Counted from the stretch's first letter, positions 15,672 to 27,362 are shown. The stretch is DNA of 34,738 bases from Alphaproteobacteria bacterium (GCA_028281075.1 JANQKO010000059.1:1-34738), one strand, 5' to 3'. Translations and numbers: made by a program. The notes: a model not told the origin generated them from the letters alone.

Positions 15672-16100
15672 ATGTCCACAGCTACGGCGGTTGCCGAGAA
15701 GCCGGCGGCGATGGAGATCGGCGACGGCGTCATGGTCGCCAAGAAGGACGAAGCGATCTACGTGAAGGGCCGGCGCGACTGGATGCAGTATCGCGAGCTC
15801 GGCGTCACGCAAGGCAGCGCCGGGCGCATCCGGGCGCAGGTGACCTCGTCGTCGCAAGGGCTGTCGGAGCCGACCGGCTGGCACGTGCATCTCTGCGAGG
15901 GCCAGCTCGTCTACATGCTGACGGGCTGGGTGGATCTCGAATTCGCCGGCGGCAAGGTGGTGCGCGTCGGCGCGGGCGACAGCATCTACATCCCCGGCAA
16001 CACGCCGCACAACGAGATCGCCACCTCGGACTCGTTCGAGCTGCTGGAGGTCAGCGTGCCGGCCGACATGGGCACGAAGCCCTGCGACCCGCCGGCTTAG
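15672..16100 (+). CDS. Cupin domain protein
   Basis: GWHVHLCEGQLVYMLTGWVDLEF...GDSIYIPGNTPHNE are cupin motifs 1 and 2. ATG 15672 (or 15666) follows GGGAGGAG. The long 15372 start is rejected because it crosses the repeat. Confidence 0.8.
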   Translation: MSTATAVAEKPAAMEIGDGVMVAKKDEAIYVKGRRDWMQYRELGVTQGSAGRIRAQVTSSSQGLSEPTGWHVHLCEGQLVYMLTGWVDLEFAGGKVVRVGAGDSIYIPGNTPHNEIATSDSFELLEVSVPADMGTKPCDPPA

Positions 16101-16118
16101 GCGGCCTAAACAAACAAA

Positions 16119-16225
16119 GGGTTTTCACCACAAAGACACGAAGGCGCAAAGAACCAAAAAGGTTTGTTGGCGCAAAGCGCCGTAACAACCCGTTTGTTCT
16201 TCGTGTCTTTGCGCCTTTGTGGTGA
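16119..16225. repeat. P8-family palindromic element
   Basis: GGTTTTCACCACAAAGACACGAAGGCGCAAAGAAC ... GTTCTTCGTGTCTTTGCGCCTTTGTGGTGA. The tip is GGCGC-AAA-GCGCC. The two inner 8-mers are in swapped order in the two arms. Confidence 0.85.
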
Positions 16226-16332
16226 CATCTCGGATTTCGGAACGTCAACCACTTATGCCAAGTTGGCATTGGTAAGTCGATCCGAGAGCACTTGGCATCG
16301 AAATCAAAACGCGCCGATGGTAGGATGAGGCC

Positions 16333-16952: not shown

Positions 16953-17040
16953 TCACCACCAAGGCACCAAGACACCACGATCACGCAGAACGTGAGCAAT
17001 GGTGCCGGCTGATCTTGGTGTCTTTGCGTCTTGGCGGTGA
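16953..17040. repeat. P8-family palindromic element
   Basis: TCACCACCAAGGCACCAAGACACCACGATC ... GATCTTGGTGTCTTTGCGTCTTGGCGGTGA. Confidence 0.8.
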
Positions 17041-17076
17041 ACCTATCTTGTTTTTGAAACGTGACGGGAGGTGGGG

Positions 17077-17964
17077 ATGGCAGACGTGATCAATATCGAG
17101 TTTACGCGGTTCTCGGCCTTTTACAGCCCGCTGATCGCGACCATCGCCGGCGGGTTCCTGGAAGACGAGGGGTTGAGCCCAAGGCACGCGGTGTCGGCGC
17201 CGGGGCGCACGGCCATCGACTCCCTGATCGACGGCACGGCGCACGTGGTGCAGTCGGCGCTGAGCCAGGGCTTCGGGCCGCTGGAGCGTGGGCAAACGCC
17301 GCCGGCGGTGCATTTCGCCCAGATCAACGAGCGCGACGGGTTCTTCCTCACGGCCTGCGCCCCCGACCCGGATTTCACATGGGCCAAGCTCGCTGGCAAG
17401 CGCGTCATAATCGACCACGGCGCCCAGCCGCTCGCCATGTTCAGATACGCCTGCCACAAGCAGGGCCTGGATTTCGGGAGCATCACGGCCGTCGACGCCG
17501 GCGGCACGGCTGAGATGATCGCGGCCTTCCGCGCGGGCGACGGCGACTACGTCCACCTGCAAGGCCCCGCCCCGCAACAGCTCGAGCACGACAACGCCGG
17601 CCACGTCGTCGCGTCCGTCGGCGAAGCTATCGGCCCTGTCGCCTTCTCCAGCCTCGCCGCCACCCGCGAGTGGCTCCAGACCGACATGGCCGCCGCCTTC
17701 ATGCGCGCCTACCGCAAGGCCCGCGCCTGGCTGATCGAAACGCCGGCCGCCGAGGTCGCCCGCGCCGAAGCCGACTTCTTCCCCGACATCGACAGGCAAG
17801 TCCTCACCGCCAACCTCGCCTTCTACCAAACCCTCGGCTGCTGGTCCCCCCACGTCGAGATCACGCCGGAGGCCTACGAAGTCACGGTCGACGTGTTCAT
17901 GCACGCCGGCCTGATCACGCAACGGCACCCCTATGAGGCGATTGTGGCGACGCCGCCAGGGTAG
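17077..17964 (+). CDS. NMT1/THI5-like (ABC substrate-binding-protein-like) protein, no obvious signal peptide
   Basis: ~295-aa ORF. ATG 17077 follows GGGAGGTGGGG. It has a periplasmic-binding-protein-like N-terminus (FTRFSAFYSPLIATIAGGFLEDEGL). No transporter partners are adjacent. The product call is weak. Confidence 0.55.
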   Translation: MADVINIEFTRFSAFYSPLIATIAGGFLEDEGLSPRHAVSAPGRTAIDSLIDGTAHVVQSALSQGFGPLERGQTPPAVHFAQINERDGFFLTACAPDPDFTWAKLAGKRVIIDHGAQPLAMFRYACHKQGLDFGSITAVDAGGTAEMIAAFRAGDGDYVHLQGPAPQQLEHDNAGHVVASVGEAIGPVAFSSLAATREWLQTDMAAAFMRAYRKARAWLIETPAAEVARAEADFFPDIDRQVLTANLAFYQTLGCWSPHVEITPEAYEVTVDVFMHAGLITQRHPYEAIVATPPG

Positions 17965-18335
17965 GTCGAACATGCTCAATTCGAAGCTTTAGAGACCCAA
18001 GCAACCTAAGTGTTTGAATCCTCTCACCCAACGCTTAGATGTCTTTGTCGGTTGGAACTAGTTGGCCGAATGGCCATTTGACCGCCCACCACGCTTGCAG
18101 CGTCCGACCAAAAATCACTAAGGGTCTCGGCTAGGAATTGATATGCTATCTTCCGACTTTAGACTAGCTGTAATAGCGACGGCAGTAACGATGCTATGCT
18201 ACGTTGGCTACCTCAATTCGGACCTTTAATCATGATCCGCATCCGGAAATCCTCGATGCCGATATAAACAGCAAAAACGATTTTCGTTACTAAATCAACT
18301 TAGACAACATAGTAGGGTACTACACTTGAATATTC

Positions 18336-21300
18336 ATGCCACCCACTGACGAACATTCGATCTACATCCCTCGCCGCTTGACGAGAATTGACGATGATGG
18401 AAACATCCAGGAAATAAAAGAGTCTGAACTGTCAAGTCGAAGCTTGCCAATCGTGGTATTGGGCGAACCAGGCATGGGCAAAACTCGTTTGCTCGAACAG
18501 CTCGCCAATGACCAGAAAAATTGGCGCTTCATACGCGCTGGCACCATTGTACGAAACCCTCAGAAAGCCTGGTCCCCAAATCCTAAGCAAATTCTGGTGA
18601 TTGACGCTCTTGATGAAGTAGCGGCTCTCCAAGAGGGGGATCCGCTACACAATGTTCTGAAAGCACTTGGCGAGATTAACTATCCGAACTTCGTCATGTC
18701 CTGCCGTTCAGCGGACTGGCGCAGCGCAATAGCCAAATTCGATATTGCTGAAGACTACTCTAATGCACCAGAGGAATGGATTCTAGAACCCATCACGAGA
18801 GATGAAGCTCTAGACTTCCTGCTCGGTCAACAAGTGCGAAGAGAGATTGCCGACGAGCTGGTTCTCCAACTCGAAGCCAGAAATCTTTTTGAATTGTTCC
18901 GTAATCCACTCACGTTAAGCCTGCTGGCAAATGTGGTCAAGACACCGAACTACACACTTCCAAAAACGAAGGCAGATTTATTTGCGCAGGCTACTGATTT
19001 TCTGCGGCTAGAGATGAATAACAGACACGCTGATAAAGAATTTGCCCAAATGGCAAAAGAGCAGGCTTTGGATGCGGCAGGAGCGGCTATGGCCGGATTG
19101 CTGCTTACAGGCAAAGACAATATTTCGATCGGCCAAAACTCAAGTGAAAACAGCAATAATCTGCCTATCTCAGAAGTGACAACTCTTCCGAATGGTGAAT
19201 ATGCAAAAGCCCTTCTACACAGCCGACTCTTTCGGATTGGAGAATTCCATGAGCGTGGGTTTGTTCCCCTCCATCGCACGGTCGCTGAATATTTGGGCGC
19301 GCGGTGGTTGGCGAGGCGGATAAGGGGCAACAGGCAAGCGACGGCACGTTTTTTTGCGTTGATCACAGCCGATGGACTTGTCCCCGCCTCTCTGCGAGGT
19401 CTGCATGCTTGGTTGGCGCATTGGAGTCCTGAGCTTGCAAGAATAGTAATAGAAAATGATCCGTACGGATTGTTGCGCTACGGCGACGCCGATGGTCTTG
19501 ACGTAGTGCAAGGCAGAGAATTGCTAGCAGCGTTGCAGCGCTTGGAGGAAGAGCAACCATACTTTCGTGCCGGGGACTGGGCTCACTACTCTGCAAAAGG
19601 ACTGATGCACGAAGAACTGGTCGATGTAATGCGTGCCGTCATCACCAGTAGTGGCACCGGCTATCAATTGCGTACTCTTCTGCTCGAAGCCCTCAAAGAT
19701 ACTTCGATGGCGGATAAGCTTGGCTCCGAACTTGAAGCGATGATTAGAAATTCAACGCTCGACACCGGTGAGCGCTTGGACGCAGGGTTGGCTCTAGCTG
19801 GTGCCAGCGACTACGCGATCAATTGGCCTCAACTCATTGACGATTTGCGCGAAGAAGAGAATGAGGATTCACCGCATTTAGCAATCGGATTGATACTAGA
19901 GATCGGAATAGAGAAATTCTCCGATTGGTCAATTGCGAAGACGGTGCTTGCCGCAGTGGGACTTCTAGGATCGAGCAGCAGAAGGCGAGGCAGTGCGTAT
20001 TTCGGCAGCCTCCATAGTCTCGCACAAGCGATTCCAGATGATCGCACAGCAACAATGCTCGATTGCCTTGCTGACGAAGTCGCAGCACAACGATCCAGCA
20101 AAGACTCAGATCGGGAGAGTTGGGAAATTCAGTTCGAGATCGGTGGCTTTTCTCGGAAGCTAATAGCTCGACAACTCGAGCACGGCATTGATGATCCCCT
20201 GCGCCTCTGGCGATGGCTCGAAGCTCTCGAGGATAAAAACGGCTACGATGATGAAACTCGCAAGAAAATTGCGAAGTTCCTAAAAACTAACTCCAATGCG
20301 CGGGTTGCCATTCAGAGTCATTTCTTGTTTTCGACCGCATCAGAGCACTGGCGACTCGGCAGTCTCTATACCGCGAATCAGATATCGTCGGGTCTGATAC
20401 TCCAACCAGAAGACATTATCTTTCATCTACAGCAAATTGCTGAACGCAACGATAGAAGCGATCGTTACCGCGAGGTTTGGCGCACGCTGGTAGCTGTATC
20501 CCGGGGCGTAAACGGTATTCCTGACGACGTACGCGCTGTCGCCACGCCTTATGCATTGGGTGACGACGAACTTACCAATTTCCTCGATCCCAAACCGTCA
20601 CCTAGCGATCTGGATCGGCAAAACCGAGAGAAGATGTGGGAAGCACAGCGCAAGCGACAAGAAAAGGATAAGAAACGGCTATGGGATAAACACCGCACAG
20701 ATTTCGCGGCCCACAAGAATGAAATGCGATCCGGCGAGCTTGGCTGGATCGCGTCGCCAGCCAAAGTATATTTCGGTCTATTCAGCGACGTCGACACCGA
20801 GAAGGATCCACCTGATCGCATTAGAGATTGGCTAGGTCCAGAACTTCAGCAAACGGCATTGGCGGGGTTCGAGGCGACGCTTTTCCGCGACGATATTCCA
20901 ACACCAGAACAAGTAGCCAACAGCTATGCGGTTGGTAAGTACTGGAACTACATACATCCAATTTTGGCTGGTCTCGTCGAACGCTGGCGAAATGGTCGCG
21001 ATTTTAGCAATGTACCGATCGATGTGATCATGACTGGACGGCTCGGGGCCAGCAGTGAACTAATTGAACAACATGCCAAGCTTGAGGGATTTGAAGACGC
21101 ACTTGAAGCTCTACTCAGAACCGATCAAGCAATATTTGAGAGGTTTTTGAGGACTTGGTTAGAGCCGCATCTCTCGGTCGAACATCAACATGTCATGGGT
21201 CTCTACAAGTTTGCTCGTGATGTCAGCTATCGCCCTCTTTCTACCAAGCTTGCGGCGGAATGGCTTGGGAGATTTCCGAATCTTCCATTTCAGACAGAAA

Positions 21301-22427
21301 GCGAATTGATCTATTGCCTTGCAACAGCACCTGTTTCCGAGCGCAATTCGGCTTGGAGTGAGCTAATGGTCCTGGCGGAAAAACGTCGCCAAGTTGGCTT
21401 TCAGTCTGATGAGCACGGATACTTGTGGCAGTCTGTGTGCTTTCTCGTCGATTTTGAGAGTAACGGCAACTGGCTGAGATCCGGCGGAGACCTAAAGCCC
21501 GAGTTCATTTGGAGCATCCGCTCAATCCTCAACTATCAGCGTCATATTGTAGGCGACCCTCTCCCCATATCATCGAAACAATTAGCGTGGATCGTTCGGG
21601 TATTCAGGAGGATTTGGCCTCGAACCGATCGTCCCGGCGGCGTTACCTCAGGCGATGTCAATCCTTGGGACGCGGTGGAGTTTATTGATTGGGCTATTTC
21701 ACAGCTTGCAAGTAAGACATCCGATAATGCAATGGAACAACTTACCGCTCTACTCAATGCGCCGAAGGACAGCTACACGACCCGTCTAAAGGATGCTGTT
21801 GCCAATCAACGCCGCTCGCGCATGGAAGCGTCATTCGGGTCTATCAGTCTGACCGACTTTGCCGCCGCGCTGAGGAATGACACTCCGCGCTCAGCCGATG
21901 AGGTACAGGTAATAGTACTTGACGAAATTGCCCAGTTGCAGAAAGAGCTTCGTGGAAATGCCACGAATACTGTCGAGCATTTTTATGACCATAACGGTAG
22001 ACCAAAAACAGAAAATGAATGCCGCAACTTGTTGCTGGACCTGCTGAGACGACTCCCGTTTGGCATTCAAACGTCGCCTGAAGAAGCGATGCCTGGAGGG
22101 ACTCGGGCTGATGCCGGCTTTCGGCTCGACAACATAAAGGTTCCATTGGAAACCAAGGGCCAATGGCACCGAAATGTCTGGGAGGCTGCCAATTCACAAC
22201 TTGGCCAGCTTTATTCCATTGACCATCAAGCGCACGGTCGGGGCATCTATGTCGTGTTTTGGTTTGGTCGCGACGCACCACCCGGCAAAAGACTTAGGCG
22301 CCCTCCAGACAACAGGGATTCACCCCAAACGTCCGAGCAGATGAAAACGATGCTGGAACGGCGAATTCAACCGGCGCTGCGTGGTTCCATTGCCGTGTTT
22401 GTGCTCGACCTAAGTAAATCAAATTAG
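18336..22427 (+). CDS. Giant STAND/NACHT-type P-loop NTPase with C-terminal PD-(D/E)xK-like nuclease module
   Basis: 1363 aa. Walker A GEPGMGKT (aa 43-50, nt 18462-18485). Walker B ILVIDALDE (aa 86-94). NACHT-like NFVMSCRS and FRNPLTLSLL motifs. A long helical middle. C-terminus: ENECRNLLLDLL...TRADAGF(x12)LETKG (D1259 at nt 22110; E1272/K1274 at nt 22149-22157). Confidence 0.8.
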   Translation: MPPTDEHSIYIPRRLTRIDDDGNIQEIKESELSSRSLPIVVLGEPGMGKTRLLEQLANDQKNWRFIRAGTIVRNPQKAWSPNPKQILVIDALDEVAALQEGDPLHNVLKALGEINYPNFVMSCRSADWRSAIAKFDIAEDYSNAPEEWILEPITRDEALDFLLGQQVRREIADELVLQLEARNLFELFRNPLTLSLLANVVKTPNYTLPKTKADLFAQATDFLRLEMNNRHADKEFAQMAKEQALDAAGAAMAGLLLTGKDNISIGQNSSENSNNLPISEVTTLPNGEYAKALLHSRLFRIGEFHERGFVPLHRTVAEYLGARWLARRIRGNRQATARFFALITADGLVPASLRGLHAWLAHWSPELARIVIENDPYGLLRYGDADGLDVVQGRELLAALQRLEEEQPYFRAGDWAHYSAKGLMHEELVDVMRAVITSSGTGYQLRTLLLEALKDTSMADKLGSELEAMIRNSTLDTGERLDAGLALAGASDYAINWPQLIDDLREEENEDSPHLAIGLILEIGIEKFSDWSIAKTVLAAVGLLGSSSRRRGSAYFGSLHSLAQAIPDDRTATMLDCLADEVAAQRSSKDSDRESWEIQFEIGGFSRKLIARQLEHGIDDPLRLWRWLEALEDKNGYDDETRKKIAKFLKTNSNARVAIQSHFLFSTASEHWRLGSLYTANQISSGLILQPEDIIFHLQQIAERNDRSDRYREVWRTLVAVSRGVNGIPDDVRAVATPYALGDDELTNFLDPKPSPSDLDRQNREKMWEAQRKRQEKDKKRLWDKHRTDFAAHKNEMRSGELGWIASPAKVYFGLFSDVDTEKDPPDRIRDWLGPELQQTALAGFEATLFRDDIPTPEQVANSYAVGKYWNYIHPILAGLVERWRNGRDFSNVPIDVIMTGRLGASSELIEQHAKLEGFEDALEALLRTDQAIFERFLRTWLEPHLSVEHQHVMGLYKFARDVSYRPLSTKLAAEWLGRFPNLPFQTESELIYCLATAPVSERNSAWSELMVLAEKRRQVGFQSDEHGYLWQSVCFLVDFESNGNWLRSGGDLKPEFIWSIRSILNYQRHIVGDPLPISSKQLAWIVRVFRRIWPRTDRPGGVTSGDVNPWDAVEFIDWAISQLASKTSDNAMEQLTALLNAPKDSYTTRLKDAVANQRRSRMEASFGSISLTDFAAALRNDTPRSADEVQVIVLDEIAQLQKELRGNATNTVEHFYDHNGRPKTENECRNLLLDLLRRLPFGIQTSPEEAMPGGTRADAGFRLDNIKVPLETKGQWHRNVWEAANSQLGQLYSIDHQAHGRGIYVVFWFGRDAPPGKRLRRPPDNRDSPQTSEQMKTMLERRIQPALRGSIAVFVLDLSKSN

Positions 22428-22438
22428 GGAAGTTAGAG

Positions 22439-23740
22439 TTGGCAGCGGCTACGACCGAATCGAACCGCTCCGACGGCCGCCTGGAACGCCAACTCAAGAG
22501 TACGATTCTAGAAAGGCTCGAAAACTTCGATTGCGTCGCCCTTCTTGGACCTCGCCAAGTAGGCAAAACCATACTCGCTAGAGAGATTATCTCGAACCAT
22601 TCCAACTCAATTTATTTGGACCTTCAAAGTCCGAAGGACCTTGAAACACTAGGCAACGGAGAACAGTTGTTCACCGATAACCAACATGCCCTCATTGTGT
22701 TGGATGAAGTCCAATGCCGGCCTGACCTCTTTCCAATCTTGCAAAGCCAGATAGATTCTCGCCGAGATCGATTAGGAGACGATCGCGGACGTTTCTTGAT
22801 ACTGGGGTCGGCCAGCTTAGATCTGCGGCGTGCTGCCTCCAAAAGTCTTACTGGGCGTATGAGTGAAGTTCTTTTGCCAGGCTTTCAACTCGTCGAAGTA
22901 AGTCAGATGAATCATGCGACATTTGGCGCTATTCCAACTGATCCCACCGAATACGAGCAACAAACGGCTAGTAACCCGACCGCTCCGCCTCTGGATCAAG
23001 ATAATGTCAACCGACTTTGGCTAAGGGGCGGTTTTCCGTTGAGCTACTTGGCGAAAAACGATCAATCGAGCCTGCAATGGAGGCGGGATTTCATTCAAGC
23101 CTACATTGAACGCGATATTGCAGACCTCGGGCTTACCGTACACCCACCAACACTTGGCCGTTGCTGGGGATTACTTGCTTCGCGCCAAGGCTCAATTTGG
23201 AACAAAGGAAAATTCTCCAATGCCCTTGGAGTGAAGATCACGCAAATAGACGAATGTATTTATGCCCTTGAAAAGCTCTTATTCATTCGTGCGTTACCGT
23301 CATGGCATGGTGATGTTAGAAGGCAGTTAATCAGAGCTCCAAAATATTATGTCTGTGACTCGGGACTGCTTCATTCCCTATTGAACATCAGAACCATAGA
23401 TGAGCTTGTCGAGCAGGAAGTTGCAGGTCACAGCTGGGAAGGGTTTGTAATTGAGACGCTCATTAACGCAGCACCAAGAGCACAAGCCGCTTTCTTCTAT
23501 CGCGACCAATATGGTTCGGAAGTCGATCTAGTGCTGGAATTCTCTATAAACAATCGTTGGGCGATTGAGGTAAAATTCAGCGGTGATCCAGATGTCACAA
23601 AAGGATGTCTCACGGCAGCTGATGTTATGAAAGCTAGCCGAAGACTAGTGGTCCACACAGGACCGGAGAGTTTCACAATGAATAATGGCTTTGAAGCCAT
23701 GACATTAATTGATGCTTGTGCCGCCGCAGCTGCTGCATAG
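22439..23740 (+). CDS. AAA+ ATPase with DUF4143 domain (COG1373-like; AAA_14 + DUF4143)
   Basis: 433 aa with a TTG start 11 nt after the upstream stop. Walker A GPRQVGKT (aa 37-44), Walker B LIVLDEVQ, GSAS, LRGGFP, PKYYVCDSGL, and a terminal restriction-endonuclease-like SEVDLVLE...WAIEVKFS. Confidence 0.85.
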   Translation: MAAATTESNRSDGRLERQLKSTILERLENFDCVALLGPRQVGKTILAREIISNHSNSIYLDLQSPKDLETLGNGEQLFTDNQHALIVLDEVQCRPDLFPILQSQIDSRRDRLGDDRGRFLILGSASLDLRRAASKSLTGRMSEVLLPGFQLVEVSQMNHATFGAIPTDPTEYEQQTASNPTAPPLDQDNVNRLWLRGGFPLSYLAKNDQSSLQWRRDFIQAYIERDIADLGLTVHPPTLGRCWGLLASRQGSIWNKGKFSNALGVKITQIDECIYALEKLLFIRALPSWHGDVRRQLIRAPKYYVCDSGLLHSLLNIRTIDELVEQEVAGHSWEGFVIETLINAAPRAQAAFFYRDQYGSEVDLVLEFSINNRWAIEVKFSGDPDVTKGCLTAADVMKASRRLVVHTGPESFTMNNGFEAMTLIDACAAAAAA

Positions 23741-23894
23741 ACGATCGACCTGTGGTCGCAGCGTCGAAGCGAGTCTCACGTAGCTCGACTACGAAAATTA
23801 TACAACAGACCGCCGAACGCATAAGTACACGATCATCATTCTGTCCAAGCGCCCGTCAAAATCTGAAATTGCTCTCAAATTGGGCAGGCAGACT

Positions 23895-24505
23895 TCAGTA
23901 TCCTGTCTGCCATAAACTGCCGAACGGCTCCAACCGCAACCACGCTACCGTCTCCCGCAAAAACGTCGGGATGTCGTGTAGCGGCACGTTGAGGCTGTTG
24001 CGGCGGGTGAAGTCGAAGCCGGTTGCGGGTGCGAGTGCGAGTGGCTCGGTGAGCGGGGCGGGCATCTTCATGTCGGGGAGGATCTTTTTGAGCTCGGCGT
24101 AGATGTCCTGCCAGTGCCAGCTATCGTAGACACCATAGTAGCGGCCGGACGCGGCCTCGTTTTCGTAGGCCGCCAGGAACAGCGCGGCGAGGTCGTGGAG
24201 GTGGATCATCGACGTGGAATCGTTGGGGATCTTCTCGTGCCTCGGCGGGCCGCCGGCGATGAGGGACCGCAGCCATTTGTGCGGGTTGTGCTCCAAATGC
24301 CCTGGCAGGATGACGGGGCCGAACAGGCCGGTCGGCAATAGAATGCAGAGACGCATGTCGTGCTCGGCGGCAAACGCGATGGCAGCCTTTTCCATCACGG
24401 TCTTGGTGGCGGATGTGTATTTCTTGGCCCGGCACTGCTCGCCTTCGTCGGACCAGTGGTCGACCTCGTTCTTGACCGGCACGGGCGGCACCGGATTGGT
24501 GCTGC
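23895..24505 (-). pseudogene. 5'-truncated copy of the NAD-dependent epimerase/dehydratase gene at 25682-26686
   Basis: 23958-24505 aligns without gaps to 25721-26268, with roughly 30 substitutions by eye. Protein-level similarity continues to the stop (ETVAWLRLEPF vs ETIEWLRSAPF). Homology breaks at 24505/24506 within the STNPVPP codons. No Rossmann N-terminus is present. Confidence 0.85.
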
Positions 24506-24537
24506 ATATACAGATCAACGTTTGGCCCCACTTCCCA

Positions 24538-25026
24538 TTACGTATTCGACATAACAAACCTCATTACCTTTACCAAGTCTATACAAATATAAACCAATGA
24601 TTTTGGATTTGGTGGGTATGATTCTGATCTTATTCCACTCTCGATTCTTCCAGATTCGCCACTCCACAATATGAAATATCTCGAAAAATTTCCCGATAAA
24701 ACTACCTCCTCAATATTACTTCTATTATTAAATATACTCACAAAAATTTTATTCGCAAATTCTGATGCTTGTTTTGGCCTCATTCCAAATCTTGATAACT
24801 CACTCAATATCATTATTTCGACAATGTCGAGTTTTGAATACAACCTTTTCTTCCCAGATTTGATCTTTTTGTCGGCACGTTGAAGCAAGCCTCTGTTTAC
24901 CCAGTGCTGAAATTGTCCCGGAGGAAGCCCACATACCCGGCAAACGTCAGCCTGAACATATTGCTTTTTCAACATATTGAATGACGAACCTCTGCTACTT
25001 TTAGGAGAAAATCTTCTCGTAGACAT
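24538..25026 (-). CDS. MerR/excisionase-like helix-turn-helix protein (hypothetical)
   Basis: 162-aa ORF at ~33% GC. VCRVCGLPPGQFQHWVNRGLL...GKKRLYSKLDIVEIMILSELSRFGMRPKQA resembles a MerR-type HTH plus wing. The alternative start MLKKQY (codon 18) would place the HTH at the canonical N-terminal position. Confidence 0.6.
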   Translation of the reverse strand: MSTRRFSPKSSRGSSFNMLKKQYVQADVCRVCGLPPGQFQHWVNRGLLQRADKKIKSGKKRLYSKLDIVEIMILSELSRFGMRPKQASEFANKIFVSIFNNRSNIEEVVLSGNFSRYFILWSGESGRIESGIRSESYPPNPKSLVYICIDLVKVMRFVMSNT

Positions 25027-25071
25027 CTTTTTTTAGCCGTTCCTCAATACCCCAAACGTGCCAAAAATTAG

Positions 25072-25087
25072 AATACCAACTGGTATT
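25072..25087. promoter_or_regulatory. Palindromic operator-like site upstream of the HTH gene
   Basis: AATACCA-AC-TGGTATT, perfect 7-bp inverted arms, ~50 nt upstream of the 25026 start in an AT-rich spacer. Confidence 0.3.
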
Positions 25088-25381
25088 TTACTTACTCGCG
25101 ATGCTCATCGCCAACGCAGTTTTTGTGCCCAAAAAAGAAGGTTTTGGTGGGTTATTCGATCACTTTTTCGTGATAGCCGCGAACTCAAAAAGGCAATTGG
25201 CTCCAATCAGGTTCACTATCCATCTTATAAGGCGTTGTTTTATCGTAAGAATTTTCAAGTAGGGGGTCAGCCACAATCTGTCACCGATGCTGACCGCGCC
25301 GTTCTATAGGTACTGCAACCGAACAGCAGCAGTTGCGGAGGTGGCAGCACCGTTTTGAAAACAAACCAGTAGGTTGAATCA

Positions 25382-25534
25382 ATGTCAAAACGGCCCCCTA
25401 AAATCCGTGTCAGGTTTCCGTTCGGAAACGGGACCAACATCACAATCGAGATTAGCGGAACTGTGGCAGTCATTACAGCGATTGCCGTTCCAACTTCATT
25501 AGCATTCCTCGGGCGCCTTTTTGGACTCTGGTAG
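25382..25534 (+). CDS. Possible 50-aa small membrane protein (hypothetical, unsupported by homology)
   Basis: MSKRPPKIRVRFPFGNGTNITIEISGTVAVITAIAVPTSLAFLGRLFGLW has a basic N-terminus and one hydrophobic C-terminal segment. The SD is weak. It is shorter than the ORF-track cutoff. Confidence 0.2.
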   Translation: MSKRPPKIRVRFPFGNGTNITIEISGTVAVITAIAVPTSLAFLGRLFGLW

Positions 25535-25681
25535 CCGTCAAAATCAGGACTGGCTTCACAAGTTAACTGGGGTGTCTCCAGATCAAACTCCGCAGTTCAA
25601 ATGCGGGATTATAGTAGTAATCGGCGCTTTGCATCGGCGACAACGACTGCTGGATCGCTAGAAGACAGACATTCCGTGCCC

Positions 25682-26686
25682 TCAGAACGGTGCGGAGCGG
25701 AGCCATTCGATGGTTTCGCGCAAAAACGTCGGGATGTCGCGTAGCGGCACGTTGAGGCTGTTGCGGCGGGTGAAGTCGAAGCCGGTTGCGGGTGCGAGTG
25801 CGAGTGGCTCAATGAGCGGGGCGGGCATCTTCATGTCGGGGAGGATCTTTTTGAGCTCGGCGTAGATGTCCTGCCAGTGCCAGCTATCGTAGACGCCGTA
25901 GTAGCGGCCGGACGCGGCCTCGTTTTCGTAAGCCGCCATGAATAGCGCGGCGAGGTCGTGGAGGTGGATCATCGAGGTCGAGTCGTTGGGGATCTTCTCA
26001 TGCCTCGGCGGGCCGCCGGCGATGAGGGCGCGCAGCCATTTGTGCGGGTTGTGCTCCAGGTGGCCCGGCAGGATGACGGGGCCGAACATGCCGGTCGGCA
26101 GCAGAATGCAGAGGCGCATGCCGTGCTCGGCGGCAAACGCGATGGCGGCCTTTTCCATCACGGTCTTGGTGGCGGATGTGTATTTCTTGGCGCGGCACTG
26201 CTCGGCTTCGTCGGACCAGTGGTCGACCTCGTTCTTGATCGGCACCGGCGGCACCGGGTTGGTGCTGCTGGTGCTGCTGCAGATGATGGCGGTCTTGACG
26301 CCCTGGCGGGCGGCGGCGCGCAGGATGTTGAGGCAGCCGTTGACGGTCGGCATGATGATCTCGGCATAGCCTTGCTCGTCGTCCATCTCGCGGGCGGGCT
26401 TGCCTGACGGGCCGGCATAGACCGGGATGAGGCTGGCGATGAAGACGGCGTCGGTGTTGGCGAGCGGTTCGTCGAAGTCGGCTTCGTGGGCCATGTCGGC
26501 GCTGTGGAGCGTCAGCCGTTCGGCGGCGCCGGGGAGCGCCATGAGGTAGGGCGCCTTGTCCGGCGCCTTCGCGTCGCGCAGCGTACCGCGCACCGTGTAG
26601 CCGCGATCGAGCGCCGCCTTGACGATGTTCGAGCCGACAAGGCCGCTGGCGCCGACGATGCAGAGGGATTTGTCCGCGAGCCTCAT
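25682..26686 (-). CDS. NAD-dependent epimerase/dehydratase family (extended SDR, aldehyde/flavonol-reductase-like)
   Basis: 334 aa. N-terminal Rossmann motif IVGASGLVGSNIV. Active-site region KKYTSATKTVMEKAA. High GC. Confidence 0.88.
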   Translation of the reverse strand: MRLADKSLCIVGASGLVGSNIVKAALDRGYTVRGTLRDAKAPDKAPYLMALPGAAERLTLHSADMAHEADFDEPLANTDAVFIASLIPVYAGPSGKPAREMDDEQGYAEIIMPTVNGCLNILRAAARQGVKTAIICSSTSSTNPVPPVPIKNEVDHWSDEAEQCRAKKYTSATKTVMEKAAIAFAAEHGMRLCILLPTGMFGPVILPGHLEHNPHKWLRALIAGGPPRHEKIPNDSTSMIHLHDLAALFMAAYENEAASGRYYGVYDSWHWQDIYAELKKILPDMKMPAPLIEPLALAPATGFDFTRRNSLNVPLRDIPTFLRETIEWLRSAPF

Positions 26687-26710
26687 TTTCTTTCTGCCTC
26701 TTTCCTGTTG

Positions 26711-27362
26711 GGCCGGCAGAGAAGGGAGGTTTCACCACAAAGACGCGAAGACGCAAAGAACCAAAAAGACGTTGGCTGGCGCGGGCCGGTATGCCGACGT
26801 GTGGGATGTCGGCACGAACACGGCGTCGCGGGACCTGAGTCTTAGACGTGAATGGGATCGACCACAGAGGCACGGAGGACACGGAGAAAAGTTGGTTGGC
26901 GCGAAGCGCCGGAAGAAAGCGCATTCTCTCTGTGTCCTCCGTGCCTCCGTGGTGGAAACCCCTTCGCTCTCACCGCGTCGCGGCGGAACGGATCAATGGG
27001 ATGGACTGCCCATGTTCTGCATCCGTCGGGTCGGCCGGAAAGAGAGGTTTCACCGCCAAGGCGCCAAGACACCAAGTCGGCATGTCGAATTGCGCCGGTA
27101 TGCCGACGTGTGGGATGTCCGCGCGAAAACGGCGTCGCGGGACCTGAGTCCTAGACCGGAATGGGATCGACCACAGAGGCACGGAGGACACAGAGAATAC
27201 ACATGTTTTTCCGGCGCTTCGCGCCAACCAACTTTTCTCCGTGTCCTCCATGCCTCTGTGGTGAAAACCCCGTCGTCCTCACCGCGCCGCGGTGAAACGG
27301 ATTAACGAGGACTGTCCTCATGTCGTCGGTCAACAGCAGAGACGCGGAGGGCACGGAGAAGG
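26711..27362. repeat. 322-bp tandem duplication (x2) of a composite of P8 half-element, GCCGAC hairpin and a full P8 palindrome, plus a partial third arm
   Basis: Unit 1 starts at GGCCGG 26711 and unit 2 at GGCCGG 27033. The modules are collinear (GGTTTCACC..., GGTATGCCGACGTGTGGGATGTC, GGCGTCGCGGGACCTGAGTC, GAATGGGATCGACCACAGAGGCACGGAGGACAC...). Confidence 0.85.

Follow-up and report, generated by a model that had tools for sequence, protein, structure and literature searches.

The eruA-like gene and its family

The DNA analyzed here, called the window in the following, is a stretch of 34,738 nucleotides (nt) from an Alphaproteobacteria bacterium (GCA_028281075.1, JANQKO010000059.1, positions 1–34738). 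On its plus strand, at 18336..22427, lies an open reading frame (ORF) for a 1363-residue NACHT protein of the STAND type, which was assigned to the Erebus anti-phage family by the NCBIfam model NF058535 and is referred to here as the eruA-like gene. It is followed by a gene for an AAA_14/DUF4143 protein, and both are carried by an island of low GC content. The eruA-like ORF is a real, conserved gene and not a chance ORF. Judged by its sequence, the encoded protein is a new, divergent representative of Erebus (EruA), a family of bacterial anti-phage NACHT proteins that is already known. It scored 1203.4 bits against the antiphage_EruA equivalog model, the cutoff of which is 1000, and residues 13–1360 were aligned to model positions 1–1318. 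When the protein was cut into four segments, each of them matched the corresponding part of the model, and the last 159 residues were placed at positions 1164–1318 with 195 bits. The match to EruA is colinear over the full length; both proteins are equally long and divided into the same three parts, of which the C-terminal domain is one. The window protein differs in being divergent and in its coupling to an AAA_14/DUF4143 gene; in most of the family this gene is missing.

The HyoA model of Hypnos (NF058534) matched residues 147–799 only (1.6e-35), which correspond to helical domain 1 (HD1), the winged-helix domain (WHD), and the first half of the solenoid described below. With a score of 137 the protein stayed under the HyoA cutoff of 1200, and the rest of it was unmatched: in a segment-wise comparison neither the nucleotide-binding domain (NBD), nor the second half of the solenoid, nor the C-terminal domain aligned to the model. 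The literature groups the sensors of Erebus and Hypnos in the class Avs10 and reports that they sense the major capsid protein. Going by the names, 'Eru' would stand for Erebus and 'Hyo' for Hypnos. A literature search for 'EruB' returned nothing relevant.

In a Pfam scan of the whole protein, nSTAND3 was the sole family above its cutoff (28.9 bits vs. 27.2). NACHT (PF05729) reached 23.4 bits, below its gathering cutoff of 26.7, and AAA_16 and AAA_22 were below theirs as well; a precomputed PF05729 match is present in several homologues. Many homologues also have a precomputed match to PF28130 (DUF8371), a model newer than the Pfam copy that was searched. PADLOC 2023 did not recognize the NACHT protein.

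A search of 5.8 billion proteins resulted in 956 matches. The best 120 of them were examined and found to be colinear with the window protein, 1305–1389 residues long, and 35–63% identical to it, so that 63% is the highest identity to any database protein among these 120. A scan limited to one genome per species yielded 75 loci, mostly in Alphaproteobacteria (Sphingomonadales, Hyphomicrobiales, and Caulobacterales). Further loci were found in Gamma- and Betaproteobacteria, including Pseudomonas, and single cases in Opitutaceae and Nannocystis.

The NACHT switch and the solenoid

The protein was modeled with AlphaFold2 in two pieces, residues 1–1200 (with 53 sequences) and residues 1140–1363. 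The model of residues 1–1200, with a predicted local distance difference test score (pLDDT) of 85.0 and a predicted template modeling score (pTM) of 0.74, starts with a short β-hairpin (residues 14–28); this and all domains below are encoded on the plus strand. The NBD of the NACHT module was placed at residues 36–150 (18441..18785) based on the nSTAND3 match, the invariant motifs, and the β-α-β pattern of the model, in which the P-loop domain spans residues 39–150. The Walker A motif, G43-E-P-G-M-G-K49-T50 (residues 43–50, 18462-18485), conforms to GxxxxGK[ST], and the Walker B motif, D90-A91-L92-D93-E94 (18591-18617), fits the NACHT signature, defined as D[GAS]hDE by Kibby et al. The HD1 and WHD of the module, placed by model and Foldseek at residues 155–329 (18798..19322), were modeled as a helical domain (155–225) and a winged-helix region (241–329) and contain the H313-R314 pair. 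In the homologues G46, G48, K49, D90, D93, E94, R124 (the sensor-1 arginine), H313, and R314 are invariant. A Foldseek search of the Protein Data Bank (PDB) with the model of residues 1–1200 returned NOD2, NLRC4, Avs4 bound to portal (8dgf), NLRP2, NLRP3, and NLRP1, with E-values from 1e-7 to 1e-4 (1e-7 to 1e-5 for NOD2, NLRC4, Avs4, and NLRP3) and a probability of 1.00. The NACHT assignment of the eruA-like protein is sound.

The switch is followed by an all-α solenoid, the presumed sensor (residues 333–1200, 19332..21935), delineated by the helices-only model, by Foldseek, and by the partial HyoA match. Foldseek likened it to HEAT-type solenoids such as karyopherins, CAND1, and transportin (E about 3e-4). 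The charged stretch REKMWEAQRKRQEKDKKRLWDKHR lies within a single 37-residue helix (756–792) of the model. A full-length profile searched against PDB sequences gave P-loop matches only.

At the N-terminus, the P-loop is preceded by just 42 residues. An in-frame TGA stands 9 nt 5' of the ATG, and the nearest ORF upstream is on the opposite strand. No plus-strand gene lies upstream, so an effector domain at the N-terminus would have no space. A preliminary description of the window had put Walker A at residue 43 with essentially no N-terminal domain in front, which agrees with the motif at residues 43–50, with the stop 9 nt upstream, with the start of the EruA model at residue 13, and with the colinear homologues of the same length. 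The same description had noticed HEAT/ARM-like helices in the middle region, now seen as an all-α solenoid with HEAT-type Foldseek matches. What found no support was its presentation of the protein as an undescribed oddity, as the protein belongs to the known EruA family, and the curated model of that family extends over the C-terminal domain.

The C-terminal domain

Residues 1205–1363 (21948..22424) form a domain of PD-(D/E)xK-like type, presumed to act as the nuclease effector, according to the AlphaFold2 model, the invariant residues, and Foldseek. In the model of residues 1140–1363 (pLDDT 89.5, pTM 0.81), three linker helices precede a core made up of α1 (1226–1236, with E1226), β1 (1245–1252), β2 (1256–1264, with D1259), β3 (1267–1275, with E1272 and K1274), α2 (1284–1293, with Q1288), β4 (1303–1309), α3, and β5. 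An α-β-β-β-α-β core, the restriction-endonuclease topology, is present in this high-confidence model. The positions of E1226 on α1, D1259 on β2, and E1272-x-K1274 on β3 match the placement of the catalytic residues that is canonical in the PD-(D/E)xK superfamily.

These four motif residues are at least 93% conserved in the 120 homologues and invariant in 53 aligned ones. At the species level, E1226, D1259, E1272, and K1274 are kept in 74–75 of the 76 homologues, down to 26% identity, and the sequences that miss any of them come from truncated contigs. C1229, Q1276, W1277, and Y1293 are likewise nearly invariant, and Q1288 is invariant. On α2, the helix following the strand with ExK, Q1288 and Y1293 form a pair that may be reminiscent of the QxxxY motif of RecB/Cas4-type PD-(D/E)xK nucleases, although Q and Y are one residue further apart.

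In a search of 1.84 billion representatives, a profile of the C-terminal domain matched 2571 proteins at E ≤ 0.001, 1601 of them at E ≤ 1e-10. In all of the best 150 of the 2571 matches the domain forms the extreme C-terminus of an EruA-like protein, the short proteins being colinear EruA fragments, and it is kept in every complete homologue of the genome scan. It is therefore a fixed part of the family and not a recent fusion.

Many of the PDB structures that Foldseek matched to the domain are PD-(D/E)xK nucleases, namely Can1, SfsA, Cdn1, PspGI, McrC, Bax1, EndoMS/NucS, the R2 endonuclease, the La Crosse virus (LACV) cap-snatching endonuclease, Hjc, Mus81, PaqCI, Kpn2I, LmuA, EcoRV, OkrAI, and HincII. 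The best nuclease matches are individually weak (E 0.026–0.05, probability 0.57–0.84). The structural matches have low TM-scores, to which the 85 linker residues of the query contribute. In the viral library BFVD members of the superfamily likewise account for many of the matches, and the named ones are endonucleases, with E about 7e-3 or weaker.

Several results weigh against reading the domain as a nuclease. In the Foldseek search of the PDB no match reached E ≤ 0.001, the best having E-values of 0.008–0.04 and a probability of at most 0.84, and the best BFVD matches (E 8e-4 to 2.5e-3) are uncharacterized proteins. Ten diverse C-terminal segments compared with Pfam at E ≤ 10 gave nothing relevant, and no nuclease emerged when PDB sequences were searched with the domain by phmmer and by profile. 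In an hhalign comparison of the EruA C-terminal profile with the profile of the neighboring DUF4143, the probability was below 1%, so the two are not detectably of the same family. An assignment to the Mrr or Cap4 type was considered and is unsupported, with no Pfam or PDB-sequence profile match. Taken with the model, the restriction-endonuclease fold and the active-site pattern of the domain are nevertheless well supported as predictions, and the domain is most likely the effector, with putative catalysis at these residues.

The preliminary description had read the motif string correctly to the residue: E1226-N-E-C1229, RADAGF at 1257–1262, then 12 residues, and LETKG at 1271–1275. It had made its nuclease proposal depend on an α-β-β-β-α-β fold and on the conservation of D1259, E1272, and K1274; the C-terminal part does model in this way (pLDDT 89.5), and the three residues are kept in 74–75 of the 76 species-level sequences. 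Its suggestion of an Mrr/Cap4-type nuclease found no backing, as the domain matches no Pfam profile. In calling this the only effector-like motif, it also overlooked the adjoining AAA_14/DUF4143 gene, DUF4143 being itself a PD-(D/E)xK family.

Domain order and activation geometry

The order of the parts is confirmed as NACHT switch, helical sensor, and C-terminal nuclease-like domain. The eruA-like protein does not have the canonical layout of Avs1–5, in which the effector is N-terminal, the NTPase central, and the sensor C-terminal. Its switch-sensor-effector order is the fixed layout of the Erebus family and a known minority layout of bacterial NACHT proteins. A signaling effector C-terminal to the sensor region is also found in human NLRP1 and CARD8, NLR-type proteins in which this part is the UPA-CARD. 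They differ from the window protein in that their effector is a death-fold adaptor freed by proteolysis and not an enzyme, and they are not close relatives.

Among bacterial NACHT proteins, some have their effectors at the extreme C-terminus, and REase-fold (restriction-endonuclease-fold) DNases occur among the effectors (Kibby et al.). With bNACHT25 and other proteins described there, the window protein shares the D[GAS]hDE motif, the WHD histidine, and the class of REase-fold DNase effectors. The Mrr-like REase of bNACHT25 is N-terminal, whereas the window protein belongs to the minority with C-terminal effectors. Avs3 and Avs4 (Gao et al. 2022) and Avs7 (Lee et al. 2026) carry Cap4 or Mrr-type PD-(D/E)xK nucleases and form tetramers when they bind a phage protein. 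The window protein resembles them in its STAND switch, its large helical sensor, and its putative nuclease of PD-(D/E)xK type, and Avs4 (8dgf) was a top match to residues 1–1200. In these Avs proteins the nuclease is N-terminal, whereas that of the window protein is C-terminal, with no N-terminal domain and no match to a Cap4 or Mrr profile.

The preliminary description had proposed that an effector placed behind the sensor implies an active oligomer basically unlike the Avs tetramers, for example one in which the nucleases meet at the distal ends of the solenoids. The linear order on which the proposal builds is the one found, and no solved structure shares sequence similarity with the protein beyond the P-loop. 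Kibby et al., however, predict that a toroidal or helical sensor brings a C-terminal effector back to where the N-terminal ones lie in space, and we consider a basically different geometry improbable.

The coupled AAA_14/DUF4143 gene

An ORF that starts 11 nt downstream of the eruA-like stop (22439..23740, plus strand) encodes a 433-residue AAA_14 ATPase with DUF4143, a possible accessory partner (Pfam AAA_14, 6e-21, and DUF4143, 1e-35; PADLOC PDC-S01, 263 bits). DUF4143 corresponds to PD-(D/E)XK family 100 (PMC3424549). Three distant homologues are each followed immediately by an AAA_14/DUF4143 gene that overlaps them by 4 nt, and in one of the three another copy lies upstream. Altogether, such a gene is translationally coupled to eruA, in most cases by a 4-nt overlap, in 28 of the 79 loci (L001–L013, L017, L022–L025, L027, L037, L038, L058–L061, L064, L066, L068, and L071), being downstream in 14, upstream in five, and on both sides in nine. 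Some of the downstream copies are shortened to about 280–300 residues (L025, L037, L066, and L071). In the loci that lack the gene, no other conserved coupled gene was found. As 51 of the 79 loci have no coupled partner, EruA can stand alone.

This neighbor suggests a two-component system, in which the C-terminal domain of EruA would be nuclease-like but serve in DNA binding, tethering, or autoinhibition, and the AAA_14/DUF4143 protein, recruited or activated by EruA, would do the damage. Such a division of labor would suit the 11-nt spacing here and the 4-nt overlap in many relatives, sometimes with copies on both sides, as well as a neighbor that contains a PD-(D/E)xK family domain and is itself the PADLOC defense candidate PDC-S01. 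According to Kibby et al., small distinct C-terminal domains after the repeats may also tether the protein to an endogenous component. It is, however, hard to see why exactly the catalytic-type residues would be invariant in a purely structural module, and the 51 loci without such a neighbor keep the C-terminal domain with its E/D/ExK residues intact. As a candidate, PDC-S01 belongs to the single-gene class, and it could be no more than a co-travelling defense gene. We therefore regard the two-component system as rather unlikely, and prefer the C-terminal domain of EruA as the effector. The AAA_14/DUF4143 partner would be either an accessory of one subclade or a defense gene that travels along.

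The genomic island

Both genes are located on a low-GC island (17980..25712), recognized from the composition profile and the GC of its segments, which also carries a MerR/HTH_17-type ORF. Its GC is 0.44–0.51, compared with about 0.67 in the flanks. A direct repeat of 556 nt, 94% identical (23950-24505 and 25713-26268), duplicates the 3' part of a gene for a NAD-dependent epimerase. The intact epimerase gene is at 25682..26686 on the minus strand and an ORF for a fragment of it at 23895..24557. Both copies of the repeat have a host-like GC of 0.63, and between them is a low-GC segment of 1.2 kb with the MerR/HTH_17-type ORF. The direct repeat has the look of a remnant or scar left when an element inserted into the epimerase gene at its 3' end. 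No integrase was found on the island and no tRNA in the window, a megablast search of plasmids with 17000-24000 was negative, and promoter and terminator scans remained at chance level.

The window genes that flank the island are metabolic, and one may ask whether the protein is a non-defense STAND, a regulator or housekeeping sensor merely resembling defense NACHT proteins, which would also suit a Pfam NACHT score below the gathering cutoff. We consider this very improbable. The protein passes the curated EruA equivalog cutoff, its gene sits on the low-GC island, it has no DNA-binding output domain of the kind typical of STAND regulators, and its relatives adjoin SIR2_2, HEPN, conjugation, and other mobile or defense genes. 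The neighbors recorded at three of the related loci (L001, 1933-5514; L002, 11345-12934; L004, 11386-16080) are SIR2_2, HEPN_LA2681, ArdC/ParB, and TrwC/TraG conjugation genes. Such neighbors fit defense islands and mobile elements.

Outside the island, short repeated and inverted elements resembling repetitive extragenic palindromes (REP-like), with the core TCACCACAAAGACRCGAAG, occur in intergenic host DNA on both sides (16100-16231, 16953-17041, and 26707-27270).

Proposed mode of action

Taken together, the eruA-like gene probably encodes an Erebus-family (EruA) anti-phage NACHT protein that was acquired horizontally with the low-GC island and that uses the C-terminal nuclease as its effector and the solenoid as its sensor. 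Its layout would comprise a short N-terminal hairpin, the NACHT switch (about residues 36–329), a solenoid sensor of about 870 residues, and a C-terminal effector of about 160 residues. In the resting state, the nuclease domain would be held away from its partners by the solenoid and the ADP-bound NACHT module. During infection the solenoid would bind a phage protein, which by family assignment is most likely a major capsid protein of the HK97 fold. The NACHT module would then swap its nucleotide and oligomerize, and the gathered C-terminal nuclease domains would cut DNA and halt phage replication, probably at the cell's cost. The trigger of this particular protein, its oligomerization, and DNA cleavage are inferred, whereas family membership, the NACHT motifs and fold, the solenoid, the nuclease-like fold, and the invariant catalytic-type residues come from the analysis itself.

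That a phage capsid protein would be the trigger follows the grouping given by Lee et al. (bioRxiv, PMC12803255; Nature 2026, PMC13581612), where Erebus, Hypnos, and bNACHT64 form the sensor class Avs10, activated by the major capsid protein. Their account also states that cell death was lost in every family tested once the effector was mutated or deleted, and it credits the names Erebus, Hypnos, and bNACHT64 to van den Berg et al. 2024 and Kibby et al. 2023, Erebus to van den Berg (Cell Host Microbe). Anti-phage activity is known for relatives of the window protein, as that of Erebus, through citations.

Two further points count against this reading of the window protein. One 2026 preprint, in the statement it makes on Erebus, still calls the mechanism unclear. 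The second concerns sequence distance. Identity of the window protein to the Pseudomonas homologues (L039, L054, and L072) is only about 30–34%. As we assume the tested Erebus to come from Pseudomonas, the trigger specificity of the window protein may differ.

A more far-reaching version of the Erebus reading would have the systems of the window's subclade work with one or two coupled AAA_14/DUF4143 ATPase-nuclease proteins (PDC-S01), and would have the C-terminal nuclease give an assembly unlike the solved Avs tetramers; we hold it to be doubtful.

The locus does not represent a new type of system, as the family, the likely class of trigger, and the C-terminal effectors of bacterial NACHT proteins have all been published. 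A large, otherwise unannotated gene is now assigned to a known anti-phage family, and predictions at the level of residues are available, with E1226, D1259, E1272, and K1274 as the putative catalytic center of a domain that has no Pfam model in the copy searched. Something new might come only from the recurrent coupling of eruA to AAA_14/DUF4143 genes.

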